The position numbers and the translations under genes are program-made. 64,000 nucleotides of DNA from an uncultured Candidatus Saccharibacteria bacterium (lineage in GTDB: Bacteria; Patescibacteriota; Saccharimonadia; Saccharimonadales; 2-12-FULL-41-12). Shown here piece after piece: positions 6,693-39,800 of the stretch. The first letter of the stretch is position 1. Each line of letters opens with the position of its first letter. The DNA lies in the NCBI GenBank assembly GCA_964444225.1, contig CAYUFM010000002.1:3609-67608 (forward strand), written 5' to 3'. The notes under the pieces are model-generated. The model was not told where the DNA came from. It did not search any database and was given only the letters and a program-made list of their open reading frames with translations.

Positions 6693-7808
6693 TTAACGCC
6701 TGCGAAAAGCAAAGTGTTCTGCAGCAATACGCCTTTGAGGCTCCGCGGCGTGACTCGCATGCGTTCCAGGAGTAATAATCCCCTTGGGTGAACGACCGGA
6801 AACAACTCTAGGCATATCAGTAATTTGCTGTAAAAATCTTATGATATCTTCACGACCTTTGTACAGTAAGTCTTGATCTGGAAAATCAAATGTTAACAAA
6901 AGATTGGGATTGTGTTCTTTGGCAGCGATTACGTCCTGAGATGGGCCTAGTAATCTACCTTTTGAGGATGATCGCTTTAAACCATTTGAGTAAGCCAGAA
7001 GTTGTCCAAGACCACCTCCCCCACTAAATTTAGGTGAAGTTTTACTATAAATATTTGGCAGGGCTTTTTTTACTTCATCTATGATTTCAGGGGTTAATCT
7101 CCATGGATCATTAGATTCTTTTAGATTTTTTGGATTGTTTATAAGGCCTTCTCTTACCATCATGCGCCACACAAATCTTGGCCAGCCAAAGTTACTTACG
7201 TTAGGCTTTCCTTTCATATACGCATGAGTGACCTGGCTGGGGTCTAGTTCTGCAACTAGACCTGAAGCAATGTTTCCGCCAAATGAATCGGTAGAAATTC
7301 TGGTTACTTCTAAGTCTTCTGAGGCTAAAGCACGTGCAAGAGATTGAACTGTTGGTATCGCTGTTGTTGTGTCGCCTTCCTCCCATGTCGTTCGGCCGGT
7401 TTTTGCAAAATACTCCAACTCTTCCTTCGTAAATGGATCTGACCCACCATTACCTATTGAAGCAAGGTAAAGTCGCGCCCTCGCAGGATGCGCAAGTGAA
7501 TGCAGGGCAAATTCTGCTGCATTTCCTACATTACCAGTAAGACTTGAGGAATACGTGGAAATTTCTAAATCTACGCCATCGCTTACTGATGTGGGGTGAG
7601 TTTGAGCAACTTCAAATCTACGGCCTGTTTTTGGGTCTACAATCTGTCGATATGTATCATTTATTTCTTCAAGTCTGTCAAAATACTCCTGGGGTAAAGT
7701 TCCATCTAAGGCAGGTTGAGGAATTTCTACATTCACCATCTCACCAGGGATCACTTTTGGATCACTCAATGGCGAAAAGACAATATTCTCATACTCATAG
7801 GTTTTCAT
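6693..7808 (-). CDS. hypothetical protein, possibly an alpha/beta-hydrolase-fold serine hydrolase
   Basis: A 371-aa ORF. ISTDSFGGNIA resembles a nucleophile elbow (GxSxG with a Thr at the first position), and there is a C-terminal PGTHASH. I recognise no stronger family signature. Confidence 0.3.
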   Translation of the reverse strand: MKTYEYENIVFSPLSDPKVIPGEMVNVEIPQPALDGTLPQEYFDRLEEINDTYRQIVDPKTGRRFEVAQTHPTSVSDGVDLEISTYSSSLTGNVGNAAEFALHSLAHPARARLYLASIGNGGSDPFTKEELEYFAKTGRTTWEEGDTTTAIPTVQSLARALASEDLEVTRISTDSFGGNIASGLVAELDPSQVTHAYMKGKPNVSNFGWPRFVWRMMVREGLINNPKNLKESNDPWRLTPEIIDEVKKALPNIYSKTSPKFSGGGGLGQLLAYSNGLKRSSSKGRLLGPSQDVIAAKEHNPNLLLTFDFPDQDLLYKGREDIIRFLQQITDMPRVVSGRSPKGIITPGTHASHAAEPQRRIAAEHFAFRRR

Positions 7809-7846: not shown

Positions 7847-8641
7847 CTATATATGCGCAGATTTTTTTATGTGCTTTAGTGTCAACTCAGTTCGAGCACG
7901 CGCGTAAGTACAGTAACTACACGGCCCACCCATGATATCTATACCAATATTTGGCATTTTATCGTTGTCCATACATTTTTTCATCTTGATTATGGTTTTT
8001 TCCACCCAACTATCATCACCTTTATACGAGATAATTTTAGTCTTAAACTCTACCCTATCGTTAAAGCCATCCAGGTCTAGGCGACCGTTGGTGTAGACAA
8101 AGTATCCCTGGTCGCTAACACTAAAATCATTTGCGCGTAGCAACCACTGGTAAACTTCCATTTGTCGCTTGTACGTTACTTGCCATCCAGCATCAATGCT
8201 TACCTCACCGTCCTTCGCTGTCGCTTTGTAATCTACAACCATTAGACTGCCTTTTGGATCCACCCAGACATCATCGACTGCTCCAAAAATGTGCAAATTT
8301 GTTGGTTCATGAAGCGTAAAGACTCCCACAAAATTTTCTCGCCATTCATTCATTTGTTCATTTTGATACGGGACTGCAACAATATTGTGATCAGCCATCA
8401 TGGGATGAGCTTTTTTAAGCTCGCGGTATTTATCGAATTCTTTTTTTAGCAAAGTATCAATCGCTTGATTTATACGAAACGGCGCACCATCTGGTCGCTT
8501 TATTTTAAGCCGAACATCAAGCCAAAAACATCGCGGACACTGAACAAAAAGCTCAATCTTACTTCGGCTAACCTTAAAAGGTGCCTTTTGTCCGGGTTCG
8601 TAAGGTAATGATCGCTCCCGCCAATAATTATTCGCCATCAA
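7847..8641 (-). CDS. PD-(D/E)XK nuclease, Cas4/RecB-like, with a putative Fe-S cysteine set
   Basis: A 264-aa ORF with an N-terminal CPRC, the core GAVDDVW...MVVDYKA...YKRQMEVYQWLL (D...D/ExK...QxxxY), and a C-terminal GPCSYC. Confidence 0.65.
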   Translation of the reverse strand: MMANNYWRERSLPYEPGQKAPFKVSRSKIELFVQCPRCFWLDVRLKIKRPDGAPFRINQAIDTLLKKEFDKYRELKKAHPMMADHNIVAVPYQNEQMNEWRENFVGVFTLHEPTNLHIFGAVDDVWVDPKGSLMVVDYKATAKDGEVSIDAGWQVTYKRQMEVYQWLLRANDFSVSDQGYFVYTNGRLDLDGFNDRVEFKTKIISYKGDDSWVEKTIIKMKKCMDNDKMPNIGIDIMGGPCSYCTYARARTELTLKHIKKSAHI

Positions 8642-8650
8642 CTAATTGTA

Positions 8651-9331
8651 TCAGAGTGAAGCGGCGATGATGGCGGCAGTTTCAGCGCGAAGGGTAAATT
8701 CGCTTAAAGTAATATGGTCGTAATCGCCATTAGCAAAAATAGCTAGCTCATCGTCAGACCAACCACCTTCTGGCCCTATCACAAAACCAACTTTTTCATC
8801 AGTAAGCTCGGGCCTAGAATTACCCTGGTGGCAAATATAAATTTTGATTTTATCTCTGTATTCATCTAGTACTTTTTGCAGGTGGATAGGCTCGCGCACA
8901 TTAGGAATATCAGATCTACCACATTGTTCGCTGGCTTCTATAACAATTTTTTTAGCGCGCTCGTGATTAAATTCTTTTTTTATTGTCCGGTCGGTTATAA
9001 GAGGCACAAATGTTGAAACTCCTAGTTCTGTTGCCTTCTGTAAAATATATTCGTTATTATCTTTTTTGAGCAGGCTCCAGAACAAATATATGTGTTTTTC
9101 GGGCACAGTCCTAACTTGTTCTGTAACCAATTTTAGATGTGCTTCATTTTGTTTTAATTCAACAATTTTATATAAACGGTCTGTTTTAACACCGTCAAAT
9201 AACACTACTTCTTGTCCATCACGAAACCGCAAAACTTTGTTCCATTGCCAGATTAAAGCTTGCTCATGTAGCCAAAAATCTTGCTTCAGTTGCAAATCTG
9301 GCCCTGTATAAAATCTGTGAATTTTGGCCAT
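8651..9331 (-). CDS. rsmE: 16S rRNA (uracil1498-N3)-methyltransferase
   Basis: A 226-aa ORF with an N-terminal HRFY and a C-terminal SPOUT knot motif, IGPEGGWSDDE...L....LR.ETA. Confidence 0.8.
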   Translation of the reverse strand: MAKIHRFYTGPDLQLKQDFWLHEQALIWQWNKVLRFRDGQEVVLFDGVKTDRLYKIVELKQNEAHLKLVTEQVRTVPEKHIYLFWSLLKKDNNEYILQKATELGVSTFVPLITDRTIKKEFNHERAKKIVIEASEQCGRSDIPNVREPIHLQKVLDEYRDKIKIYICHQGNSRPELTDEKVGFVIGPEGGWSDDELAIFANGDYDHITLSEFTLRAETAAIIAASL

Positions 9332-9333
9332 AA

Positions 9334-10596
9334 TTACTTTAATGATAACACGGCTAAGCTTTCAATGTGAGGTGTACGCGGAAAGAAGTTATAGCCTGTT
9401 ATTTTTTCTATTTTGTATTCACTTTGCAGGGCATTGATGTCACGAGCTTGCGTACTTGGATTACAACTAAGATAAATAACTCTGGGCGGCTTTGCTTCTA
9501 AAATTTTATGGACAAGATCGCTGTGAAGCCCTGCCCTGGGCGGATCTACCACCAGCACGTGCTTTGAGTCGACGTAATCTAGTGCTTTTTCACTAGATAT
9601 ATTAATAACCCTGGTTTTTGTACCAAAAGCATTTTTTTCTGCCCAAAAAATATTATTTTTATCCGATTCTACTAATAAATCGGTGTTTTTTAGAGCCAAG
9701 CCAATCGTTCCAACTCCGCTATAAAAATCTAAAATCGGCGATTCACCGCAATAATTTGAGATCTCGAGCATTGCCGTGTTAAAAACAGGCAGGTTGACCT
9801 GAAAAAATGAAAAAACGTCGTAATTAATTTTTTTATTATCTAAAACATTATCGTATAAAGATATATCACCGAACTCATACAGATCATTAGAGCGTATACT
9901 GGCCGGACTTTTAGGGTTAGAGTAGACTACGACAACTCCCCTGCATACGTCTTTTAGCTCAATAATCTTTGGAAAGTTAAAATTTTTAACAAATAAAGCA
10001 ACCACCACATCTCCTGCGCTATTGCACCGCAAAATAATGCTTTTTAGATCACCGGCTCGGATTTTATTCTTGTCTAAAATATCACAGATTTTATTAGCGA
10101 CAATGTCTATTTCTTGTCTAGCAATACTACTACCAGCAACTACTTGTTTGGAGTGTGTACCTCTGTTAAAAAGTGCTAGATGTAGGCCGTCTTCATCGCC
10201 ATAAAAAGAATATTCCATCTTGCTACGATAGTTCCAGTTAATTTCTGGTGCAATAAAATCGATATCTAAGTCGTAATTAATTTTTGCTCTAGCGAATGTC
10301 TCGAACAGAATCTCTTTTTTGGCTTTATTTTCCACCGCGGAGTTCATAATTTGCCAAGGGCTGGTGCTTAAAAATTCGGCGTCTTTAGGATCTATTCTGT
10401 CTTTCGAGGCATTAATAATTTTGGTCGCAATTCCTTCAACAAAATCAGACCGACTTTTTGTAACCCGAAATTCAACCTGTTCGCCTGGCAAAACACCCCA
10501 CACAAGTGCTTTTTGACCAGTATCTAGAGTGCCTAGTCCCTGCCCGCCATGAACTAGTTTATCTATCTTTACTTCGTAAAACTGTGGCTTCTTCAC
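9334..10596 (-). CDS. RNA (uracil-5)-methyltransferase, TrmA/RlmD family
   Basis: A 420-aa ORF with an N-terminal TRAM-like OB region, FFQVN, VVDPPRAG, and the catalytic YLSCNPSTQARD. Confidence 0.8.
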   Translation of the reverse strand: MKKPQFYEVKIDKLVHGGQGLGTLDTGQKALVWGVLPGEQVEFRVTKSRSDFVEGIATKIINASKDRIDPKDAEFLSTSPWQIMNSAVENKAKKEILFETFARAKINYDLDIDFIAPEINWNYRSKMEYSFYGDEDGLHLALFNRGTHSKQVVAGSSIARQEIDIVANKICDILDKNKIRAGDLKSIILRCNSAGDVVVALFVKNFNFPKIIELKDVCRGVVVVYSNPKSPASIRSNDLYEFGDISLYDNVLDNKKINYDVFSFFQVNLPVFNTAMLEISNYCGESPILDFYSGVGTIGLALKNTDLLVESDKNNIFWAEKNAFGTKTRVINISSEKALDYVDSKHVLVVDPPRAGLHSDLVHKILEAKPPRVIYLSCNPSTQARDINALQSEYKIEKITGYNFFPRTPHIESLAVLSLK

Positions 10597-10597
10597 A

Positions 10598-11533
10598 CTA
10601 CTTATTAAAGGCAGAGAAAATTGTCAAAATAATAGCAAACTTAGCAATTTGGTCAATTCTAATGTAGCGCTGTTCGTAGGCAACATATTCAAACTTCTTC
10701 TTGTTTAGAATAGAAGATTTAAGAGTTAGTAATGTGGCTACCGTAGACAAAACTACAATCGCACTAACGACATAAACGTACCAGCTAAACCGCTCATCTC
10801 CGATAACAGACGTTGCTATAAGGCTAATTACCATCGGCAACAATGCCAAGACATAGGCAAAAACTGCACCATAGAAAGCAAGCTTTTTAGGAGATTTAGA
10901 ATCTTTGTTCTCGCGTTCTGCTAGCCAGCTAAATAACGATCCAGCCAAGACTAGAGCGCCGACGGTCTTCATAGTATTTAACTCGTTTACTCCGGCCAGT
11001 AAGCTAGCAAACTCTACGACCACCATAGATATAACACCATAAAGTAGCCAACGCATTCCTGAAATACCAGCCTTTATAGTAGCTTCGTACCGCTTAAACA
11101 ATCTGGTGGCAAGCAGAAGAGATGCTACTGCTGTTAGGCCTAAGATGACAACTAAAATCCATCTTATACCTACGTTAAGTAAACTTTCTGTGGCAGAACC
11201 AAGCACAACACTGTCAGACATGACAAAAGTGTCTTTTGCCTGATAGTTTAGTAGCAATTCTTTGGTCTGAGGGTTAACAAAAACAATTGTAAGAATTGCT
11301 AAAATAACACCAGAAAAAACGTTAGATAAATGTAGTCCACGAATTTTCTCGAATGGTGTAGCTGAAGTCTTTTTAGAAGTAGAAGGTACTTTTTTTGCTG
11401 ATGAAGTTTTAGCGCTAGCTACTTTTTTAACAGATGTTTTAGCTGAAGCGCTGGCTGATTTTTTAGCAGCAGGTTTTGTTGCTTTACGTTTTGCAGTAGA
11501 TGCAGATTTTTTCTTGGCAGTTGTTGTCGCCAT
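10598..11533 (-). CDS. heliorhodopsin-like seven-transmembrane protein with a K/A/S/T-rich N-terminal tail
   Basis: A 311-aa ORF. Residues 1-60 are polycationic low complexity. Residues 61-311 have seven hydrophobic segments. The landmarks LFKRY, RWLLYG, FSWLAERE and YIRIDQIAKFAI match, by eye, my recollection of heliorhodopsin 48C12 (FFKRY, RWVEYS, FGWLQEKY, YIVLSLVAKSAL). Confidence 0.55.
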   Translation of the reverse strand: MATTTAKKKSASTAKRKATKPAAKKSASASAKTSVKKVASAKTSSAKKVPSTSKKTSATPFEKIRGLHLSNVFSGVILAILTIVFVNPQTKELLLNYQAKDTFVMSDSVVLGSATESLLNVGIRWILVVILGLTAVASLLLATRLFKRYEATIKAGISGMRWLLYGVISMVVVEFASLLAGVNELNTMKTVGALVLAGSLFSWLAERENKDSKSPKKLAFYGAVFAYVLALLPMVISLIATSVIGDERFSWYVYVVSAIVVLSTVATLLTLKSSILNKKKFEYVAYEQRYIRIDQIAKFAIILTIFSAFNK

Positions 11534-11603
11534 ATATAGGTGTCTCCCTTTAGTCTTTTCTTGATAATACTATAGCAACTCATTGTACTTAAATCCACTA
11601 TGA

Positions 11604-11680
11604 CCTCACGGATTCTCGCCAGACTGCGATGTCAGGTGCTTGGAATCTGAGTAGGCAGTCTGGCGCAGGATTCTTGAGGA
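11604..11680 (-). other. long imperfect GC-rich hairpin between msrA and the heliorhodopsin-like gene
   Basis: There is a perfect 11-bp inverted repeat, CGCCAGACTGC (11617-11627) and GCAGTCTGGCG (11655-11665). An inner TCAG/CTGA pairing and outer CCTCA/TGAGG pairing extend it. No U-tract follows. Confidence 0.5.
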
Positions 11681-12184
11681 TTAATGAATTGGCTCGTAAG
11701 GTACATGACACATCCCCTTACCCGTTGTCTGAGTATATTTCTGATGATAATCTTCAGCCCTATAAAAAGTACTTGCCTGTTCAAGCTTCGTCGCAATAGG
11801 ATTCTTGAAGCTCGAAGACAAATTTTTAATTACTATTTCGGCTAGAATTTTCTGATCATCACTATGATAAAAAATTGCAGAGCGATACTGGCTACCAATA
11901 TCTGGACCTTGTCCATCTACCTGAGTTGGATCATGAAGTCTAAAAAAATGTTTTAACAAAGTCTCGTAAGTTATAAGTTCTGGATCGAACTCTATTTCGA
12001 CAGCTTCTGCGTGTCCTGTTTTATCCGTGCATACTTGCTCATAAGTAGGGTTAGGCACGTTGCCGCCCGTATAGCCAACTATAGATTGGATAACACCAGG
12101 TACTTGATCAAAGTAATACTGCACACCCCAAAAACACCCCGCTGCAAAGGTTGCTTTTTGAAGCCCAAGTTCTGCCATGTCCAT
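11681..12184 (-). CDS. msrA: peptide-methionine (S)-S-oxide reductase
   Basis: A 167-aa ORF with the GCFWG catalytic motif and GHAEAV, DP....DGQG.D.G.QYRS. Confidence 0.9.
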   Translation of the reverse strand: MDMAELGLQKATFAAGCFWGVQYYFDQVPGVIQSIVGYTGGNVPNPTYEQVCTDKTGHAEAVEIEFDPELITYETLLKHFFRLHDPTQVDGQGPDIGSQYRSAIFYHSDDQKILAEIVIKNLSSSFKNPIATKLEQASTFYRAEDYHQKYTQTTGKGMCHVPYEPIH

Positions 12185-26781: not shown

Positions 26782-28446
26782 CTAAAGTCCAGATGCTTGA
26801 TCATTACCTAGTATTATAACAAAATCAGCCGTGTCGGGGATAATTGCGGGATCTGGTACAGTGCCGACCGCTGTTGTACTAAATCTTCGCTCCAGATAGT
26901 TCTTTGTGTATTTTTTTGTTCCATTTCTTAGATCTACTACTATAGTTTTTTCGTATGTCCTGGTTGGCGCATTATCTACTTTGGTTACTGTGTAGCCAAA
27001 TGATTTGAGTTCATCGCCTTTCTCGGTAGCTAAACCAGATTTATTTGTTCCGTTAAGAACCATAACACTAGCATTCTCGTTCTTTAAGAAGCTATCTTTC
27101 AACGCGTTGCGGATAAAACCTTGGATTTCTTTAAAGTTACCGGTGCCCGCAGTCGGAACAACCACAGAAAGCCCACCAATGTTGTCTGTTCTTACAAAAT
27201 TATTTGGTGGATCGGCTAGGCCAATAGATGCAATTTTATCGCTTGGTATTTCTTTGCTTATTTCATATAACCTCTGGAGGTCCGCCACGCTAAAGTTTGT
27301 CTGAAGATGATTCCCGAAAGTATTGAGCAAATTAGATATCTTCTGAGGATTACCGAAAGTACCTGCTGATAAAATTTTGTCTTTTAGCGCCGTTATGATT
27401 ATTCTCTGGCGCTCAGATCTGTCGAAGTCACCCCTTGGAGAAGTATAGCGCGAGCGAGAGTAAGCTAAAGCCTCAAACCCATCCATATCTTGCCATCCAG
27501 GATTTACATTCAAAAAATAATTCTGACCCTTTATTCTCATATGCTCACTAACTGCATCTGGGGCGTTTATAGTTATGCCACCCACATTATTAACCGCCTG
27601 CTCGAATCCATCAAAATCCACCATCAAATGATAGTGAATTGGTACACCCAAAGCAGATTCTAGCGTAGCTTCAAGCATTTCAAAACCAGCCTGTTCGGCT
27701 AATTTCGCAGACTGTGAGGTGCTTATTTGCTGATTGTTAAGATAATTTGCCTTACCAGTAAAAAATACCGAGTTAACCTTCATAGACCCAACACTCTTAA
27801 CAGGTACGTACAGGTCTCTAGGCACACTTAATAATGAAGCCTCTTTTGCAATAGGATCTATGCTTGCCAGAATAATTGTATCCGTAAGATCGGCACCTTC
27901 ATGTCCTTCACCACCTCTTCCGAGTAGCAAAATATTAACCCTACCATCGCCTTCGCCTTTTAGTTGAGATATATCAACTTCCTTGCTAAGAGCAGGCGCC
28001 AGCCCACCACCCGGTAGAATTTTTTTAACCGTTATATACCCTTTATAGGTCAAAAACCCTAGAACAAGAGTCGCCACAATAAGCAGTATGCCTAAAATCT
28101 TTAAGATTCTCTTCTTTTTACTGGATTTCTTTCTGCTTTGATTATACTGAGGTTTTTCTTTTTTAAACTTTGTTTTTTTTGTGGTTTTTCGATCAATAAT
28201 AAATGTTTCTGCTGTCTTGTTAGTAGTAATTTGTTGTTGAGCCGACGCATGAAACCCATCCCTACGACTAAAGTCACCTACTGCACCAGTGCCCTGGTTC
28301 GATCCTAGATTAGAATCTCTTCTACTGTTTTGAATGTCGCCGAAGTTCGAGCCTTTATTAAATCTAGTTACGGGTCTTGAACTAATACCATCAATCGATG
28401 GCTTTTTGCGATTTCTTGGATCTTGATTTCTTTGATATTGATTCAT
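26782..28446 (-). CDS. LytR-CpsA-Psr (LCP) family cell-wall glycopolymer ligase
   Basis: The ORF contains RVNILLLGRGG...ADLTDTIILASIDP...SLLSVPRDLYV after a basic cytoplasmic tail and one TM segment. I set the start at the Met at 28446 (MNQYQRNQ..), because the longer ORF (to 28734) runs antisense into lepB. Confidence 0.78.
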   Translation of the reverse strand: MNQYQRNQDPRNRKKPSIDGISSRPVTRFNKGSNFGDIQNSRRDSNLGSNQGTGAVGDFSRRDGFHASAQQQITTNKTAETFIIDRKTTKKTKFKKEKPQYNQSRKKSSKKKRILKILGILLIVATLVLGFLTYKGYITVKKILPGGGLAPALSKEVDISQLKGEGDGRVNILLLGRGGEGHEGADLTDTIILASIDPIAKEASLLSVPRDLYVPVKSVGSMKVNSVFFTGKANYLNNQQISTSQSAKLAEQAGFEMLEATLESALGVPIHYHLMVDFDGFEQAVNNVGGITINAPDAVSEHMRIKGQNYFLNVNPGWQDMDGFEALAYSRSRYTSPRGDFDRSERQRIIITALKDKILSAGTFGNPQKISNLLNTFGNHLQTNFSVADLQRLYEISKEIPSDKIASIGLADPPNNFVRTDNIGGLSVVVPTAGTGNFKEIQGFIRNALKDSFLKNENASVMVLNGTNKSGLATEKGDELKSFGYTVTKVDNAPTRTYEKTIVVDLRNGTKKYTKNYLERRFSTTAVGTVPDPAIIPDTADFVIILGNDQASGL

Positions 28447-28546
28447 ATAAATACGTGGTACGAGTATCCAGTATACCTGCTTGTCCTGACACGAGTAAAC
28501 CCCAGCCTTCATTAAAAAATAGTAATTATGGTAATCTATAGGTTGA

Positions 28547-29218
28547 ATGGAACCAATCAACCAAGACAACAACGTATCAAATTCCTCGTCGAGGTTTGAA
28601 TTTGTTAATTCTCCCCCCACGCAACCTACTAAAAGCTCACGTTCACCGCGCTTTAAAGAGAATATCTCTACAATTATCATTCTAATCTCTGCACCTTTAT
28701 TGGCAGTTTTTCTTTCTATTTTTGTATTCCGCACATATCAGGTTGATGGAGCCAGTATGCTTACCACGCTACATGATGAAGATAGACTGATAATCAACAA
28801 GCTACCTAAAACATTTTCGTCAATTACGGGGAAAAATTATATTCCCAACAGATACGATATAATTGTTTTTAATCATAAAGGATCAGCTAGCGGCACAACA
28901 AATTCCGATAAACAAATTATTAAGAGAGTTATTGGACTTCCAGGAGAAAGAGTGGTCATAAAAGATGGATTGGTAAAAGTCTACAACAAAGATAACCCAG
29001 GTGGATTTTTAGTTGATAAACTTGGCCCCCACACGTCCGTAATAAATCTTACTGAAGGCAATGTGGACGCAACCGTTAATGACGGAGAAGTGTTTGTGAT
29101 GGGCGACAATAGAGGAAATTCACTAGACTCCCGAGCCTTAGGCACAATAAACTCGGATGATATTGTTGGCAAACTAGTATTAAGAGTGTTCCCTTTTAAG
29201 GACTGGCGGGGATTTTAG
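28547..29218 (+). CDS. lepB: signal peptidase I
   Basis: A 223-aa ORF with a TM anchor, then DGASMLTTL (catalytic Ser box), RVIGLPGE, and GDNRGNSLDSR. Confidence 0.85.
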   Translation: MEPINQDNNVSNSSSRFEFVNSPPTQPTKSSRSPRFKENISTIIILISAPLLAVFLSIFVFRTYQVDGASMLTTLHDEDRLIINKLPKTFSSITGKNYIPNRYDIIVFNHKGSASGTTNSDKQIIKRVIGLPGERVVIKDGLVKVYNKDNPGGFLVDKLGPHTSVINLTEGNVDATVNDGEVFVMGDNRGNSLDSRALGTINSDDIVGKLVLRVFPFKDWRGF

Positions 29219-30904: not shown

Positions 30905-33900
30905 CTACTGAATAACGTGATAGTTGAACTTATATACAGCGCCATTAGCGGGTGCAGTATTTGTGCTAAGTGTAAAGTCTGTCGCAGTTTGGCTGACGTA
31001 TGCCTGAAGAGTAGCCGAAGTACTGCCTACGGGAGTAATGGTTACTATTGGCGATATTCCATAAGGTGTTGCAAAAGTAAATTTCGCTAAATCCCCAGTA
31101 GTTAGCGCACCTAAACTGGCAGTTGATATAGTGATAATTCCGGAACTATCATTACCGTCAACAGATACCGTTGCACCGTTAGCACTTGTTCCGGAAGCCC
31201 CTAATACGTTCGATGCGGGAGTATTGCCAGCGGTAATTATGTGGCCCGCTACAGTTATGCCGGCGTTAAATATAGCATTATTGTTAACCGTTAAGTTAGC
31301 AATAGTTGCCGTACCGGTGACTGATAGATTAAGTGTAGTTAAATTACCAGCAACATTTATATTTGCAAAATTGCCTGCCTGGATATTGTTGATAATAGAG
31401 TTAATTGAACTGATTTGTGACTGAATACCAGCAATCTCGGCCTGCTGTTCCTGAACCGCCCCAACTAAAGGAGTAACTAAGCCTGCATAGTCCACACCAA
31501 TATACTGATTAGGATCATCGGGATTAACAACTGATACAAATTCTGGGAATATTTGTTGTACCTGTTGAGCTATAAAACCAATTTTATTGCCAGGATTACT
31601 AGAGTCAATCCAATTGAAATTAACAGGCTGCAACTGATTAATCTTCGTAAGTGAATTTGATAACGACGTGACATTTGTTTTAAGCCTGCTGTCAGATGTA
31701 CATGAAGTTCCGCCTGTGCCGTTACCGATCGTACATGTCGTACCAGTTCCCGTTACTACAAGATTAGACTTGTAGGTACCTCCACCAATATTGACATTTC
31801 CGCAAGCCGCTCCACACGCACCGGAACCCGCGCCTGGTGCAAAAAATATGTCAGCCCCAGATGTATTAGTCCTTATAACTAAATCATTGATTGCCGTTCC
31901 AGTAACCCAAGCGCTCGCACTTGCTGCAATTGCTATTTCAGACTTAATTGTTCCGCTTGCTGATATCCTAATGGCCATGTTACCACCAGAAGTATTATTG
32001 AACACTCCTAAGTAAGTTGCTGATGATGTTACATTGAATAGCCCATCTGTCATTGTAAGGTTGCCACCCAATGTTGTATGTCCAGCGTCACTTATAGAAA
32101 GTCCAACTAAGCCATTTATCCCTACTCCAGAAGTAGCGTAGTCCTCTCTGAATATCCTTAAGGTTCCAGCATTGTTGTCAATATTCCATAGGTTATTAGT
32201 TCCGGCATTTAAAGGCTCAAAGGTAATTCTTCCATTAGTACCATTGCCTACCCTGACCTGACCAATACTAGAGTTAACATTAAATAATGATGTGCCTGAA
32301 GCATTCTGGACTGTGAAGGTAGATGCCCCATTAGACTGAGCTTTAAATGTAGTTGCGCCTCCGTTTGCAATCTGCATAACCGTGACTGGTGTAGTCTGTT
32401 CATCAGTAATCTCAAGTATATTTGCAGTTGAAGACTTATGATTAACTTGTAAACTTATGACTGTGTTAGCAGCCGAAGTTCCGTCTACCTGCAATCGAGC
32501 TGCTGGGCTTGCAGAATTTATTCCAACACTTCTGTTAGTTGTATCTACGTCCAATACTGCCGACCCGGCTACACTAACTACCTGTAGAGCTGTAATGGAG
32601 TCAGATGTATTTTGAACTCTTAATCCCGAAGATAGAGATGTGGAGATTCTTCCATCACTATAGGTTGTACTGCCAGAACCCGTGACCACACCGCCCAAAA
32701 AATATCCCTGGAAGAACCTGTTATCTGCCGCAAAGGTTGTACCGGTACCTACTGCGCCAATGTTTCGGGCCGTATATTTTGTAATTGTGGCATTACCAGT
32801 ATATCCAGCAGTTGTGCCATAACTTACTGCCGGAGATACAGTAAGCGTTGCGGTCCCACCTCCTGAAGTTATGCGGGTATAATAGTCCTGACCCGAACCA
32901 CCGGTGTTATCAACAAGAATTATGTCACCGTTTGCAAAACCTCCTGCAGCCGCTAACACTATAGAGGTTACACTTATTCCACCCGTGCCAGATGTGGTAC
33001 CCGTAGTACCTGTTGCTACATTGTTGGCTAGCAAGGATCCATCATTATTAAAAATTAACGCATCTACTCCAGCGTCTTGTATTTTAAAGGAACCATCCCC
33101 TAGTGTTGTACTAGTTGTTTGTAGGTTAAATAAAATACTAGGATCAGTTGCAGTATCCGCAGCATTAATAACTAAGTTTTTAGAGTTTGATAGTGCTATT
33201 GTTGCTGGACTTGAGCTATTGTCATAAGCTTGTTGTAAAGTTGTTGAACCTGTAGCCCCAACCGAGTACTGCCAACTTGCACCTCCGTTAGTATTACTCC
33301 AAATGACAGTTGCTGACTGTCCCACCGATACGGCAGAACCCAGTAGCGTAAATGAAGTTGTTCCAATATTTGATATATATAAGAGTCGTCCATAAGTTGT
33401 ATTTGTAGTAGGAGTCGGTAGGGTCAAAGTTTGTCCAGCTGTTGTTTGCGCTACAGATATAGAGGTGTAGATATCAACAGTTGTAGCTGCAGTTCCTATA
33501 GATCCGCCTCCCGCAAAATTACTTAGCGCCAATGTGGAATTAATTGTGGAGCCATGATTTGTTAATTGACCCTGCCCAGCACCAGACCCCAGTACTATTC
33601 CTCCACTCCCAGCCTGAATAGTAGTAGTGCCCGTACTTGCCGTTGAGCCTATTGTTACAGTTTTAGCACCAGTACCTCCGGTGCCAAAGTTTAGTGATTG
33701 TGCTCCAGTTCCGGTACCAATAGATATTGTTCCTGTTTGAGCACCAGTACCACCAATAGTTATAGTGCCAGTTGTGAAGCCAGCTCCGATATTAACAGCT
33801 CCTCCTGTGTTGGAATTAGAAATATTAACAGTTGTTGCACCTGCGCCATTGCCTATTAGTACAGAATTGGATCCACTTGAAGACCCAAGCGTTAAATTGC

Positions 33901-35860
33901 CAGTCTGTGCAGTACCACCAATAGTTATGGTACCAGTTGTGGTACTGGTACCTAGTGTATATGTAGTACCTGCAACACCGTCTAATGTGAAATTTCCTGT
34001 CCCGGCTCTTAGATTCAGAGCTGTGGCACCAGTTGTATTACCAATATTGAGTGTTTGTGCATTAGCATTGTTACCTATGCTAATAGTTGCAGCCGACTGA
34101 AGTGTTATGTTGCCTGCAATCGTAGATCCAATTACAACTGTACTTGTGCTAGAAAGGGTGGCATTATTCCCGATATTAATGGTCTGCGCCACTGCCCCGG
34201 TCGCATTACCTATTTGAACAGTATTAGCAATACCTCCTGTGCCCACATTAACTCCGCCTGTACCACCCTGGAGAGTTGTTGTACTAGTGCTAGTACTAGA
34301 GCCTATGGTAGTTGTATGTGCTGTAGCTGTTGTGCCAAAGTTACAAGCTCCAGTACCGCAATCTACTACGACTGATGTAGCGCCTGTGTTATTCCCTATT
34401 GTAATAGTTTTTGCATTGGCACCTGTGCCCACGTTTATTGCTCCTGTTGTACCGCTATCTAGTGTGAGCGCTGTACCAGTTCCTGAATTAATTGCCAAAG
34501 TACCATTAGCATTTAGAACTGTGCTTGTCCCTAGTGATACGGTACCACCACCACCCTGAATCGTTAGAGTGCCAGCCGAAGTACTCCATGTAGTAGCGAC
34601 AGCAGATGTTAATGTTAATGCGCCAGAGCTGGTAGTCAGACTACTAGCTGCGTTACCCGATAGCGACACCGCCCCTGTACTCTGAGATAAGTTGCCAAGA
34701 ATTGTCGTACCAGTAGCGGTAGTCGCAAAATATGTCGTTGCCCCATTATTGCTCTGCACTTCAAATAAGTTTGCTCCAATTGGCGTTCCATTATCTCTGA
34801 TTGTAAATGCACCTCTGGTCCCATCAACAACTATCTCTGGATTGGTTGAGTTATCATAAGCATTTTGTAAAGTTACTGCACCGCCAGAGCTAACACAATC
34901 TGTCCAGGCACTGCCTTGGTAACACCTGAACTTATTGTCAAAGGTATTGTAGTACATGTATCCCTCAGCTCCACCAGCCGGATCTCCCGTAGTAGATTTT
35001 ACATCTAGGGCTAAGTAGTCCGGCGAAGCTGAACCTACTCCACCAGCACCTACTTGGATTACACCAATAGTAGAGGTTCCTTGGGATTGGAGAATAATAT
35101 TGCCAGAGCCGGAATTGATAGTGGTGGCAGAAGTACCACTTGATTTGCCAATAGTTATGCCGGTAGTGTTGTTGGTAGTACCGATAAGGATACTTCCTGC
35201 TGTTTGGGTGGCTGTACCAACGTCTACTGTGATACTGCCTGAGTTGGAGGTAGTGCCGGTGGCATTACCAGATTGGATCGTGATGGCGTCAGAGTTAGTA
35301 GAAGCGGTAGCGGTATTAGAGCTTTTGACATTAGCAGACACTAAAGCATATGGGACAGATGCTAGTTTGAACCTCGGAGTCATTTCAGAATCTGCTGGAG
35401 TACAGGCCGCAAATGCACATGCGCCAGAGCCTCTAACTGTCATACCCAGCCAGACATCATCTTGCCAATTGACATCTGACTCATCAGCTAGAGAGTCGTA
35501 ATTGCCTAAAGTAGCACTAAAATAGCCGTTGACTATCCTAACCCTTCTGTCGGGAGAGCCTCCGTTATAGTCGTGGGTTTCTGTCCACAGAGTAGAGCCT
35601 GCAGATGATACGTGATAGAGATTAAATTGAATATTGTAGTAACCGTCAGGAACTAGAGAACCTGAAGCATTCAGTAACCTACCCTGGAAGTTAATGGTAG
35701 CAGAGGTGCTAGCAGCGTAAGCTACGTCAACAGACGTGGTTGTGCGCGTATATGTATATGCGAGAGACGACAAGAAAATAAGGACAAAAGCAAATAGAAG
35801 GAGAAGTTTATGCATTGCTTCCCCAAAAGCCTTAATTGTTAGACCTTGGGTATTTTTCAT
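30905..35860 (-). CDS. giant (1651 aa) N-terminally anchored fibre/adhesin-like surface protein with an internal S74 intramolecular-chaperone domain
   Basis: One uninterrupted ORF with an N-terminal hydrophobic anchor (LLLLFAFVLIFLSSLA) followed by YTYTRT. The composition is T/G/S/A/N-rich with few charged residues. It has a degenerate IG-N-x-x-G repeat region (aa ~440-760) and SDSRLKTNV...GFIAQQVQQIFPEFV...VDYAGLVTPLV at aa 1389-1490. Confidence 0.8.
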   Translation of the reverse strand: MKNTQGLTIKAFGEAMHKLLLLFAFVLIFLSSLAYTYTRTTTSVDVAYAASTSATINFQGRLLNASGSLVPDGYYNIQFNLYHVSSAGSTLWTETHDYNGGSPDRRVRIVNGYFSATLGNYDSLADESDVNWQDDVWLGMTVRGSGACAFAACTPADSEMTPRFKLASVPYALVSANVKSSNTATASTNSDAITIQSGNATGTTSNSGSITVDVGTATQTAGSILIGTTNNTTGITIGKSSGTSATTINSGSGNIILQSQGTSTIGVIQVGAGGVGSASPDYLALDVKSTTGDPAGGAEGYMYYNTFDNKFRCYQGSAWTDCVSSGGAVTLQNAYDNSTNPEIVVDGTRGAFTIRDNGTPIGANLFEVQSNNGATTYFATTATGTTILGNLSQSTGAVSLSGNAASSLTTSSGALTLTSAVATTWSTSAGTLTIQGGGGTVSLGTSTVLNANGTLAINSGTGTALTLDSGTTGAINVGTGANAKTITIGNNTGATSVVVDCGTGACNFGTTATAHTTTIGSSTSTSTTTLQGGTGGVNVGTGGIANTVQIGNATGAVAQTINIGNNATLSSTSTVVIGSTIAGNITLQSAATISIGNNANAQTLNIGNTTGATALNLRAGTGNFTLDGVAGTTYTLGTSTTTGTITIGGTAQTGNLTLGSSSGSNSVLIGNGAGATTVNISNSNTGGAVNIGAGFTTGTITIGGTGAQTGTISIGTGTGAQSLNFGTGGTGAKTVTIGSTASTGTTTIQAGSGGIVLGSGAGQGQLTNHGSTINSTLALSNFAGGGSIGTAATTVDIYTSISVAQTTAGQTLTLPTPTTNTTYGRLLYISNIGTTSFTLLGSAVSVGQSATVIWSNTNGGASWQYSVGATGSTTLQQAYDNSSSPATIALSNSKNLVINAADTATDPSILFNLQTTSTTLGDGSFKIQDAGVDALIFNNDGSLLANNVATGTTGTTSGTGGISVTSIVLAAAGGFANGDIILVDNTGGSGQDYYTRITSGGGTATLTVSPAVSYGTTAGYTGNATITKYTARNIGAVGTGTTFAADNRFFQGYFLGGVVTGSGSTTYSDGRISTSLSSGLRVQNTSDSITALQVVSVAGSAVLDVDTTNRSVGINSASPAARLQVDGTSAANTVISLQVNHKSSTANILEITDEQTTPVTVMQIANGGATTFKAQSNGASTFTVQNASGTSLFNVNSSIGQVRVGNGTNGRITFEPLNAGTNNLWNIDNNAGTLRIFREDYATSGVGINGLVGLSISDAGHTTLGGNLTMTDGLFNVTSSATYLGVFNNTSGGNMAIRISASGTIKSEIAIAASASAWVTGTAINDLVIRTNTSGADIFFAPGAGSGACGAACGNVNIGGGTYKSNLVVTGTGTTCTIGNGTGGTSCTSDSRLKTNVTSLSNSLTKINQLQPVNFNWIDSSNPGNKIGFIAQQVQQIFPEFVSVVNPDDPNQYIGVDYAGLVTPLVGAVQEQQAEIAGIQSQISSINSIINNIQAGNFANINVAGNLTTLNLSVTGTATIANLTVNNNAIFNAGITVAGHIITAGNTPASNVLGASGTSANGATVSVDGNDSSGIITISTASLGALTTGDLAKFTFATPYGISPIVTITPVGSTSATLQAYVSQTATDFTLSTNTAPANGAVYKFNYHVIQ
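31390..31696 (-). other. peptidase S74 / endosialidase-chaperone (intramolecular chaperone auto-processing) domain inside the 1651-aa protein
   Basis: The Ser codon at 31694-31696 begins SDSRLKTNVTSLSNSLTKINQLQPVNFNW....NKIGFIAQQVQQIFPEFVS......YIGVDYAGLVTPLVGAVQEQQAEI. This matches the S-D-x-R-x-K start and the GFIAQE...P domain pattern known from phage tailspikes and tail fibres. Confidence 0.75.
33581..34543 (-). repeat. degenerate protein-level repeat array (beta-helix-like; ...T.TIGN.TGA....V/L...) in the 1651-aa protein
   Basis: Residues ~440-760 show recurring strings such as TITIGNNTGATSVVV, VQIGNATGAVAQTINIGNNATL, LNIGNTTGATALNL, ITIGGTAQTGNLTLG, ITIGGTGAQTGTISIG and VTIGSTASTGTTTI. 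The repeats are not exact at the DNA level. Confidence 0.6.
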
Positions 35861-36811: not shown

Positions 36812-39800
36812 TTATCTTCTTGCAGTGGTCTGGCCATAAAGCTGGAAATAATCGAGCATTAATATATCCGTGCCAGTATTTGTTGTGAAGTTAAAGAATC
36901 CAGGCGCTAAACCTCTGCTGTCTGCAGGGTTTTTAATAGCAATCGTTACCGACGAAACAGTATATTGGTTTCCGTCGATAACAAAGATTGCAGAAGAAGT
37001 TCCTGTACCAGTAGCTGTTACCCTAACCTGTAAGCCCACCCAAGCATCCGTCGTAATAGCCACTCCACTATTTGCACAAGTCGCAGCCGTACCGTCGCCA
37101 TAACAGTAGCGCCAATTTGCGTTTGTAGCAGGATCAGCTTCCCACCAAACTCCTGCTGTAACGGCACCAGCGTATGTATCTGGTTGATTCGTAATTCCAA
37201 CTCGCGCCTTAAATCCAGTCGTCTGTTGAACGGCAACACCACTCTTCATTACCATCCCAGGAGCTAGATACACAGAACCATATGGATTTGTGCTCCCAAC
37301 TCCCAAAATCAAACCATATCCTGTGCTTGATGTCGTACCAGAACCCATAGCCCACACACCCGGATGGTCAACACTAGGATAAAGATAGTTCTGAGAACTT
37401 AATGTTAAAGCACTAGGAGTTCCCACGTATTGAACTCTCCAGTCATCACCATACTTACTACCATCGGTTGATGGATTAGACGGATCGCCATCCATGAACT
37501 CATAAGTCCAGTTGTAGCTCCTGTCTAATTGTGCCACCGAACAATCATCCCAAAATCCATCAGAGTAACATCTGTAGCCACCAGGCCCAGAACTATTATA
37601 GTAAGTTCCTCCATTTACACCAGTTGGGTCACCGGAGGTATTTTTGGTATCTAGCACCAAGAGAACACCAGTGCCATCGGCTGTTGCACTACCTATTTGA
37701 ACTCGTAAATTAGTGGAGTCGACAACGAGAACACTTGCAGCACTAGCATTTTGTACCTGGAAGGCAGTTGTAGAATTTGTCTGATTTTTGAACGTAGTCG
37801 CTCCACCATCCGCAATAGTCAACACATCTGTCGCCGTTGCTGTAGTGTCTCTGACCCTTAATAAGTTACCCGTTCCAGCAGATTGAATATCCAAGCCACC
37901 AGTTGCACCAGTAGACAATTGATCTATGGTTGCTACATAACTACTGTCCGTTCCGCCAGAGGCCGGGTTACGGAATATAAGGGAGTCATCTGCAGAACTA
38001 AGAGCAATAATACTATCACTACCATCGGCGTCTCCATCATAAGCACTTTGCAGAGTTGATGATCCTCCACCACTATTACAATCTGCCCACGCCCCGTTTT
38101 CATAACATCTAAATTTATTAAGATTAGAGTTATAGTACATAGCTCCATTTACTCCTGTTGGATCGCCTGCAGTATTTTTAGTGTCAAGCACAAAAGCAAC
38201 GCCTGTTGCATCGGCTGTGCTCTCACCGATCCTTATACGGCTATTTGTTGTATCTACAGAGAACAAATCAGCTCCAGCTGATTCTTCTATCAAAAATCCT
38301 GACGTAGAGTTGGTGGTATTCTTAAATGTTGTTCCGCCATCACTACCCACACCTAGAGGATAAGATCCGCCAGAAGAATTATTCCATAGATAAAAACCGC
38401 CACTTCCTCTAGGTCCAGTATTATCGACACCGATTCCCCATTTATAGCTAGTGGCCTGGAATAATTTAAGCTCCGAGTTAGCATAACCAGCAGAACCACC
38501 TATAGATACATAGGCATAGCTCGCATCAGAAGTATCAACCGATAACACCTTATTGCCAGCTGCACTTTGAACCTGGAAAACATTCGCCGAGTTTGTGGTT
38601 GGCTGTACAATAACGCTCCCTGCCGTGCCTGAACCAGTCGCAGAACCACTGGTAAGGTATAAGCTGCCTCCGTTATTATTACCTGAACCACCTGCGTTAC
38701 CACCATAGATTCTAACCGCACCACCAGCCGAACCAGTTGTTGTGGTAGCTCCAGCGCCACCTTTAATCGACAAAGTTGCCCCAGCCGTACCTGCCGTACT
38801 AGAACCAGTAGCATTAAGTGTAAATGAGTTAGGCGTCCCTGCTGTACCAGCTGCGTTAGCTGCATTACCATAATAAACATCGCCTGTTGATGTAGAGAAA
38901 TACTGGACGCCAGTTCCGTTGATCATAAATTGTAGAGCGTTATTGTCTGATGTTCCCAGTAAGGCTTTTGTGCCAAAGCTATTGCCTCCCTGCAAGAAAG
39001 CTGCCCCGCTACCAGCAGAAGTCCACTTAACCCCATCCCAGATTAGGCTAAGTGATGTACCAGCTAGTACTGTGAAGGTTGAACCACCGCTAGGTGTTAG
39101 GCTAAAGCTAGCACTACCAACGTTTGTTAGATAAAGGAATCTACCTGAAGTAGTTACGGTTGGAGCTGGTACTGTAAGGGTTTGACTGCCGGTAGTTTGG
39201 TTAACCGTTATATATGTATATATGTCTACGGTTGTAGCTGCTGAACCTATTGAACCACCAGTAGCAAAGTTAGTTAGGGCTAAAGCTGTGTTTCTAGTAG
39301 CACCGTTGTTAACTAGCAGGCCACTGCCAGCTGATGCACCGAGGACTGTACTAGCACTGTTGATGGTGGTAGTACCGGAACCGGTGAGACCTAGGCTTAG
39401 GTTGGAGCCAGTAGTATCTACGTTTAGTAAGGTACTGCCTGAGGCATTCTGGACATTAAGAGCTGTAGTAGAGTTAGTTGAAGTCCTAATACCAACAGAA
39501 CCAGTGCCAGTTACATAGAAAGCTCGGTTATGAATCCTGTAAGCCTGAGAAGCATTGGTTGAGCTAGCAGACAATGTCATATGTGTAGCATCCGTGAAGC
39601 CAGTTATTGTGTACTTATTGCCGTTAGCAAAGATGAACTCATTACCTACCATGTCAGCTGTCCAGGTTGTACCAGAACCTACGACAGTAGCTGAAGCTGA
39701 TGTTTCTGCTGTACCTGTGTCATATATATCTGGAGAAATACTGAATAGATCAGTTGGTGCAGTTGTACCGATACCAATCTTAGTGGTAGATGCTCCTGAA

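Follow-up and report, generated by a model that had tools for sequence, protein, structure and literature searches.

A Saccharimonadia heliorhodopsin with an aspartate one turn before the retinal-lysine position and a polycationic N-terminal tail

The 64,000-nucleotide stretch of DNA analyzed here (the window) comes from an uncultured Candidatus Saccharibacteria bacterium (Saccharimonadia, TM7; GenBank assembly GCA_964444225.1, contig CAYUFM010000002.1, positions 3,609 to 67,608 of the forward strand). On its minus strand it encodes a heliorhodopsin-family protein of 311 amino acids (coding sequence with stop codon, 10598..11533). The protein keeps a lysine at the retinal-binding position of helix G (Lys298), has a leucine (Leu164) at the helix-C counterion position occupied by Glu107 in heliorhodopsin 48C12, and carries an aspartate (Asp294) at the position of Ser237, one turn before the lysine. 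A polycationic tail of 59 residues precedes the first helix. Our data suggest, with modest confidence, a retinal-scavenging photosensor in which Asp294 would act as the Schiff-base counterion and which would modulate a cytoplasmic partner. Heliorhodopsins are abundant, and their function is still largely unknown.

A first-pass annotation of this DNA had proposed a heliorhodopsin from motifs aligned by eye, and profile searches bear this out. The assignment draws on the list of open reading frames (ORFs), the translation, the Pfam match, a structural model and fold matches in the PDB. The product matches Pfam PF18761 (Heliorhodopsin) at an E-value of 6.1e-18 and 65.5 bits, against a gathering cut-off of 26.7, over profile positions 5-239 of 242, and the type-1 family bac_rhodopsin is not among its Pfam matches even at E-values up to 10. 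With phmmer, the PDB chains of 48C12 and of the Thermoplasmatales heliorhodopsin TaHeR are matched at E-values of 1e-9 to 7e-8, TaHeR only at 7e-8. The product belongs to the heliorhodopsin family.

The AlphaFold2 model, built on 21 homologues with an overall predicted local distance difference test score (pLDDT) of 81, exhibits a confident bundle of seven transmembrane (TM) helices, most of the TM part scoring above 90. The bundle spans residues 60-311 (10601..11356, minus strand), with helices at residues 60-85, 123-142, 159-179, 185-209, 218-244, 251-276 and 283-309. The long A-B loop forms the extracellular beta-hairpin that is a hallmark of heliorhodopsins (residues 90-122; 11168..11266, minus strand; DSSP strands 90-100 and 111-122 in the model), and the predicted structure superposes on experimental heliorhodopsin structures. 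Ranks 1-10 of a Foldseek comparison with the PDB are all heliorhodopsins (TM-score 0.81-0.89, target-normalized), the best being TaHeR (PDB 6is6; TM-score 0.89, rmsd 1.8 Å). Type-1 rhodopsin structures enter the list only from rank 11, with TM-scores of at most 0.76, and the top 50 fold matches contain no schizorhodopsin structure. The topology is predicted to be inverted, with a cytoplasmic N-terminus, by a positive-inside count of 28 Lys and Arg residues on the tail and loops B-C, D-E and F-G against four on loops A-B, C-D and E-F and the C-terminus.

Residue equivalences were established by three methods, namely phmmer, a MAFFT alignment of 171 sequences and profile-profile comparison with hhalign, using a 48C12 numbering reference verified to be identical to PDB 9ljj/6su3. 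All three agree that Glu107 corresponds to Leu164, Ser237 to Asp294 and Lys241 to Lys298, as the first-pass annotation had read them. Leu164 (11042..11044, minus strand) lies two residues past the invariant Arg161-Trp162 pair without gaps, and none of the three alignments places a Glu at the counterion position. Asp294 (10652..10654, minus strand), the proposed counterion of a DxxxK arrangement, and Lys298 (10640..10642, minus strand), the retinal-lysine position on helix G, are read from the same three alignments. The codons check out, with 10640-10654 encoding DQIAK (Asp294 to Lys298) and 11042-11053 encoding RWLL (Arg161, Trp162, Leu163, Leu164). The landmarks LFKRY, RWLLYG, FSWLAERE and EQRYIRIDQIAKFAI are likewise present and line up with the 48C12 motifs in the HMMER alignment. 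Further pairs (48C12/query) are R104/R161, W105/W162, E149/E206, E230/E287, H80/S138, N101/S158, H23/G75 and N16/H68. The placements on helices C and G are gap-free beside invariant anchors and therefore robust, whereas the register of TM1 was shifted in one small alignment. It had also been claimed that the two histidines of the proton-accepting group are lost. Neither His23 nor His80 is indeed kept; their partners are Gly75 and Ser138 rather than the Ile and Leu named at first.

In 48C12, a cytoplasmic polar cluster connects the Schiff-base cavity to the cytoplasmic face. The query retains this cluster as Arg161, Trp162, Tyr149, Glu206, Tyr283, Glu287 and Tyr290, the Arg161-Trp162 pair (48C12 R104-W105; 11048..11053, minus strand) being near-invariant in all the chemotypes described below. 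Among the relatives, R104, W105, Y92, E149, Y226, E230 and Y233 are near-invariant in every group, those without the lysine included. The residues aligned to the 48C12 retinal pocket are small or hydrophobic (I130, L131, T134, V172, V195, G198, S199, S202, V228, L231, T264 and L271, with a less reliable alignment in helices E and F), and none of these aligned positions carries a bulky charged residue.

Relatives came from a word-indexed search, with 20 close relatives at 35-86% identity, and from phmmer run exhaustively against 1.84 billion representatives, with 415 matches at E-values of at most 1e-3, the best 150 of which were analyzed. Sites 107, 237 and 241 (48C12 numbering) were scored in 164 relatives. 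Where the lysine is present, an acid stands at exactly one of sites 107 and 237 in 109 of 118 sequences, at both in one and at neither in eight, so that the two are almost mutually exclusive as acid positions. Lys or Arg at site 241 is accompanied by an acid at 107 or 237 in 122 of 131 cases, a neutral residue in 9 of 33. The buried acid thus tracks the buried cation, at one of two alternative sites.

Conservation within the query's own group points the same way. Among 41 sequences of a tree-defined group (median pairwise identity 36%, two members lacking the lysine), the column of Lys298 ranks 9th of 252 in conservation and that of Asp294 17th, while that of Leu164 ranks 213th. Asp or Glu occurs at 294 in 40 of the 41 and Lys at 298 in 39, and no mid-membrane acid besides Asp294 is conserved in this group. 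The Leu164 site is no longer constrained. The only conserved mid-membrane acid therefore sits one turn before the lysine, in agreement with the relocation from helix C to helix G suggested at the outset. According to Kovalev et al. (PMC7049168), the Schiff base of 48C12 makes direct hydrogen bonds with Glu107 as well as with Ser237, which puts an Asp at the latter site within contact range of it. That a chloride or other anion serves as counterion near Leu164 is unlikely, because the side chain is hydrophobic and Asp294 is close by.

In a neighbor-joining tree rooted on 48C12, 35 sequences of the query's x/D/K type (residues at sites 107/237/241) form one clade, outside which lie a Y/D/K group, P0148 and a P0103/P0085 group. 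The nearest relatives of P0103 (G/D/K) and P0211 (Y/D/K) carry Asp107 with Ser, Gly or Asn at 237, a kinship that implies at least two switches or reversals. This tree is not strong enough to count or orient the switches, and we use from it only the monophyletic core of 35 and the separate P0103/P0211 group.

The chemotypes also share one syntenic slot. It holds classical forms with N16, H23, H80, E107, S237 and K241 (P0021 in locus L013, P0197 in L015), a D/N/K form (P0191), x/D/K forms (the window gene and many others) and the lysine-less P0018 (A/D/M), P0012 (L/N/M) and P0210 (M/T/Q), all of which are on this evidence positional orthologues. In P0012, the Asp and the Lys are gone together, replaced by Asn and Met. 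The lysine-less orthologues, with Met or Gln at the lysine site (L009, 5001-6008; L010, 50-961; L016, 6001-6981), retain intact tails and cytoplasmic clusters. Across the 164 scored relatives the lysine is absent from 46, of which 13 have Arg in its place; a paired acid remains in 12 of these.

The classical saccharibacterial form is very near TaHeR (phmmer E-value 2.6e-69, against 7e-8 for the query), and the far greater divergence of the query clade indicates a strong acceleration of rate. As a separate observation, the tailed, fully classical forms P0192, P0197 and P0199-P0201, found in loci such as L015, are strikingly near the archaeal protein, which hints at a common origin of, or a transfer between, Thermoplasmatales-type and Saccharimonadia heliorhodopsins. 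PDB 9vfc (317 aa) was considered as a tailed relative and rejected, as it is not near the Saccharimonadia forms.

The tail comprises residues 1-59 (11357..11533, minus strand) and consists of 16 Lys, 14 Ala, 12 Ser, 10 Thr, three Val, two Pro and one Arg, with no Asp or Glu and a net charge of +17. Residues 1-51 are disordered in the model (pLDDT below 50). Tails of at least 35 residues occur in 122 of the 171 aligned sequences, most of them starting with MAT; their pooled composition is 25% Lys, 19% Thr, 16% Ala, 11% Ser, 8% Val and 4% Pro, with a median acid fraction of 1.7% and a median net charge of +17 (range 8-27). The first-pass annotation was right in describing a polycationic tail predicted to be cytoplasmic. 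The tail is, however, not a mark of the relocated-counterion variant, an idea that we dropped as classical, D/N/K, x/D/K and lysine-less forms carry it alike. Nor is it a general property of the proteome, which was ruled out by a composition scan of 252 ORFs from 19 Saccharimonadia sequences (the window and 18 further loci), where hardly any gene but that of the heliorhodopsin (HeR) has such a segment, a few unrelated short patches apart. No tandem DNA repeat underlies the tail region, and the tail has no significant Pfam match. It is thus a conserved, gene-specific and compositionally constrained polycation, for which nucleic acid, ribosomes, anionic lipid or an acidic partner are candidate ligands. 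Ten N-terminal extension variants of heliorhodopsins have been catalogued by Bulzu et al., who discuss only a zinc-ribbon one (PMC8612252).

No start codon lies between the upstream stop and the ATG at 11533, and the ORF has the limits, strand, length and start codon originally assigned to it. A Shine-Dalgarno-like AAGGGAG, read from the sequence, lies 10 nucleotides 5' of this ATG (11544..11550, minus strand), which favors the annotated start and, with it, a translated tail. No second HeR paralogue was found within the 64-kb window.

Taken together, these features lead us to propose the following mechanism. The inverted seven-helix protein would hold its tail in the cytoplasm and use Lys298, which is suitably placed, to form a retinal Schiff base. 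The carboxylate of Asp294 would balance the protonated Schiff base in place of an acid at the Glu107 site. Retinal would be scavenged from outside, as has been shown for other saccharibacterial rhodopsins; Saccharibacteria lack retinal synthesis, and their rhodopsins load external retinal quickly (PMC9296517). Light would isomerize the retinal, and the Schiff-base proton would shift to Asp294 or into the cavity. This shift may alter the basic cytoplasmic loops and the tail and so modulate a cytoplasmic partner, on the model of regulatory heliorhodopsins. The peptide methionine sulfoxide reductase MsrA would be the best candidate for this partner, followed by the co-transcribed rRNA methyltransferases.

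Several observations weigh against this proposal. The NCBIfam equivalog model for heliorhodopsins (NF038020) gives 66.8 bits, under its cut-off of 100 bits, which fits the protein's lack of a name in source databases. Pocket residues of 48C12 are replaced (N138 by V195, M141 by G198, I142 by S199, W173 by L231, F206 by T264 and Q213 by L271), the alignment being less sure in helices E and F. An Asp and a Lys at positions i and i+4 are compatible with a mere intrahelical salt bridge. The covariation counts ignore phylogeny, and most x/D/K sequences come from the one 35-member clade. The synteny with msrA and the methyltransferases sits within a large conserved housekeeping block. Lysine-less orthologues in the same slot keep the tail and the cytoplasmic cluster, which points to a retinal-independent role in the family and suggests that part of the protein's role may not need retinal. 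Finally, Flotillin-associated rhodopsins (FArhodopsins) do not bind retinal although they have retained the lysine, their pocket being blocked by the bulky polar residues H84 and E120 (bioRxiv 10.1101/2025.04.29.651185), so that a conserved lysine alone is no proof of retinal binding.

These points raise the possibility, which we regard as tentative, that the locus encodes a polycation-tailed membrane protein whose core job is independent of retinal. Light gating would then be optional, repeatedly re-engineered (E/S, D/N and x/D at sites 107/237) or discarded (Arg or a neutral residue at site 241), and x/D/K would represent a second, schizorhodopsin-like solution. Its invariant Arg-Trp-Glu-Glu-Tyr cluster and the tail might serve to tether or regulate a cytoplasmic partner such as MsrA, ribosomes or RNA.

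A rival reading is a retinal-free scaffold derived from heliorhodopsin, in which Asp294 and Lys298 would form a buried stabilizing salt bridge and the cluster, loops and tail would provide light-independent tethering or partner regulation. We judge it unlikely. The 46 relatives without the lysine still keep R104, W105, E149, E230 and Y92, and mostly the tail too, and those placed in the slot are positional orthologues of the query; the Arg found at site 241 with its paired acid is what a structural ion pair would lead one to expect. The replacement of the aromatic and polar pocket residues of 48C12, the NCBIfam score and the FArhodopsin precedent are all in keeping with it, as are the names of several source metagenome-assembled genomes (MAGs), which point to soil or sand-filter habitats. 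What speaks for retinal instead is that the query's group holds Lys, not Arg, in 39 of its 41 members despite divergence down to 22% identity, that the pocket-aligned positions appear not to be filled by bulky polar residues as they are in FArhodopsin, and that the full heliorhodopsin architecture persists in the clade and is modeled with high confidence.

An ion-transporting heliorhodopsin, in which schizorhodopsin-like charges would make a light-driven proton transporter or channel, is improbable. The counterion architecture is the same as that of the inward proton-pumping schizorhodopsins, and the viral heliorhodopsin V2HeR3 is reported to transport protons (PMC12873467). His68 and Ser158 line the cavity position, and the query's closest relatives have Glu174 in the outer half of helix C. 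This glutamate is not conserved across the clade, however, which has no conserved mid-membrane acid other than Asp294, and the features that are conserved, the cytoplasmic loops and the surface cluster, are typical of partner binding. Least probable by far is that the tail is an annotation artefact, with a true start downstream and the Lys-rich region untranslated; low-complexity N-termini often stem from over-extended ORFs and the codon of Val35 or Val38 is a possible start in principle, but we discard the idea in view of the ribosome-binding site ahead of the first ATG, a MAT...Lys-rich N-terminus conserved in the protein sequences of more than 100 clusters (50% identity) with a frame that is never disrupted, the constant composition (acids about 2%) and the restriction of the segment to this gene.

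The photosensor proposal draws its candidate partners from the locus. The msrA gene (11681..12184, minus strand; Pfam PMSR, E-value 4e-64) lies immediately upstream of the HeR gene. Downstream follow, tightly packed at 7847..10596 on the minus strand, genes for a TRAM/U5 RNA methyltransferase (9334-10596), an RsmE-type methyltransferase (8651-9331) and a PD-(D/E)XK nuclease (7847-8641), all assigned by Pfam. The reported gaps of 1, 2 and 9 nucleotides between HeR and these genes stand, as do the identities given at first for MsrA, DUF427, the two methyltransferases, the nuclease and a LytR-CpsA-Psr (LCP) protein. The gene order recurs in Saccharimonadia loci: RseP-CAAX-ProRS-GreA-LysRS-(DUF427)-MsrA-HeR-RumA-RsmE-PD(D/E)XK-SerRS-HPF-SecA is found in L001-L006, L009-L012, L014, L016 and L017, and RumA or RsmE is directly downstream of HeR in most loci. 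The suggested link to rRNA methyltransferases is accordingly conserved across the class, but it lies within a housekeeping block and is inseparable from inherited gene order.

Of the 12 other loci examined, 10 have msrA next to HeR, in one orientation or the other. The msrA gene is on the same strand in the window, L001, L002, L011, L012, L016 and L018 and divergent in L009, L014 and L017, and it also adjoins a tail-less G/D/K form. It is a more persistent neighbor than the rRNA methyltransferases, remaining adjacent even after orientation flips. In the divergent pairs, only about 40-80 nucleotides separate the two starts. MsrA and RNA methyltransferases are absent from the ten published classes of heliorhodopsin neighbors (PMC11109279) and are not among the neighbors in Bulzu et al. 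2021 either.

The 147-nucleotide spacer between msrA and HeR contains a stem-loop (11604..11679, minus strand) with a perfect 11-bp stem (CGCCAGACUGC/GCAGUCUGGCG; -39.3 kcal/mol, z -2.6) and no U-tract. We do not count it as part of the system, since L001, the nearest genome, lacks it and has a spacer of about 50 nucleotides. A search for Rfam families and tRNAs found none in the window, this stem-loop included. A sigma-70 scan made no promoter call in the spacer, where a candidate extended -10-like element, TGCTATAGT, can be picked out by eye at 11569-11577.

All six genome matches are Candidatus Saccharibacteria/Saccharimonadia MAGs, and the named relatives are also Saccharimonadales. The window has a GC content of 40.8% and is a housekeeping region, with genes for SecA, HPF, SerRS, ProRS, class I LysRS, GreA, RseP, RRF, EF-Ts, S2, FtsZ/FtsA, IF-2 and the LCP protein. 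The identity of this last product (LytR-CpsA-Psr plus LytR_C domains) was correctly called, while its ORF extends beyond the end quoted at 28446, spanning 26782-28734 on the minus strand (650 aa); it has a Lys-rich juxtamembrane patch before its TM helix. LysRS in the syntenic position is class I in the window (PF01921; 12523-14055) and class II (PF00152) in L011 (3948-5459), L016 (3887-5410) and L017 (3807-5321), which looks like in-situ non-orthologous displacement. A 371-aa ORF without a Pfam match (6693-7808, minus strand) lies between the PD-(D/E)XK nuclease and SerRS, which are directly adjacent in L011, L014 and L016. Two giant ORFs lie on the minus strand and may encode large proteins that the episymbiont displays on its surface or uses for attachment. 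The one at 30905-35860 (1651 aa) has a Peptidase_S74 domain, an intramolecular chaperone also present in phage tail spikes and fibres; the other, at 36812-42409 (1865 aa), has no Pfam match.

Saccharimonadia heliorhodopsins as such are already known, with 80 occurrences and the motifs SLVAK, SLIAK and SFVAK (PMC9166423). Accounts of heliorhodopsin chemistry have centered on a single glutamate of helix C and the SxxxK motif. Glu107 and Ser237 have been described as highly conserved family-wide (PMC7049168), SxxxK is used as a family motif (PMC9601134), and the helix-C Glu and SxxxK serve as search criteria (PMC7049168, PMC9601134, PMC9166423). No account of heliorhodopsins with the counterion on helix G, of the polycationic tail, of a chemotype series in a single slot or of adjacency to msrA came up in our literature search, which is no proof of absence. 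If the assignment holds, a clade with a helix-G carboxylate would demonstrate that a second counterion geometry is compatible with the heliorhodopsin fold, and it may offer new spectral and photocycle variants. All chemotypes occupying one syntenic position in a genome of about 1 Mb provide a comparative series on heliorhodopsin function and its light-dependent parts, and the tail and the msrA adjacency give concrete partner hypotheses. The interest is mainly for specialists in rhodopsins and in the candidate phyla radiation.

Compared with classical heliorhodopsins (48C12, PDB 6su3; TaHeR, PDB 6is6), the protein shares the Pfam family, the seven-helix fold, the A-B beta-hairpin, the helix-G lysine, the predicted N-in topology, the R104/W105/Y92/E149/Y226/E230/Y233 cluster and the FKRY and WLxE motifs. 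It differs in the change of Glu107 to Leu, of SxxxK to DxxxK and of Asn101 to Ser158, in the loss of His23 and His80 (Gly75 and Ser138), in an altered beta-ionone pocket, in the 59-residue polycationic tail and in falling below the NCBIfam cut-off. The classical-type Saccharimonadia heliorhodopsins P0192, P0197 and P0021 have the slot, the Lys/Thr/Ala/Ser tail and the phylum in common with it but, unlike it, keep N16, H23, H80, N101, E107, S237 and K241.

In FArhodopsins and other Rh-noK proteins the fold is kept and retinal binding is lost in some, and the relatives of our protein likewise include many lysine-less forms. FArhodopsins, however, are type-1 paralogues with a blocked pocket, whereas the pocket-aligned positions here carry small or hydrophobic residues and the lysine is strongly conserved in the clade.

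Regulatory heliorhodopsins bind neighbor-encoded enzymes via basic intracellular loops (PMC9529153). AbHeR with glutamine synthetase, TfHeR with a photolyase and OcHeR with an ABC transporter are each encoded beside their partner (PMC9529153, PMC9769723, PMC11109279). The Saccharimonadia protein resembles them in its basic cytoplasmic loops and in being encoded beside, or co-transcribed with, a candidate partner. In contrast, they lack a polycationic tail, and its neighbors lie outside the ten published classes.

The closest parallel for the proposed counterion is found in schizorhodopsins, which have Phe70 at the site of Asp85 of bacteriorhodopsin and Asp184 (Asp212 of bacteriorhodopsin) as the putative sole counterion, a D184N exchange yielding no pigment (PMC7148096). 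Like SzR1 and SzR4, the protein combines a hydrophobic helix-C site with an Asp placed one turn ahead of the lysine on helix G. Schizorhodopsins nevertheless belong to another family, being N-out proteins of about 200 amino acids whose helices F and G are type-1-like and whose cytoplasmic acceptor is Glu81. The likeness is one of convergence in mechanism, not of membership.

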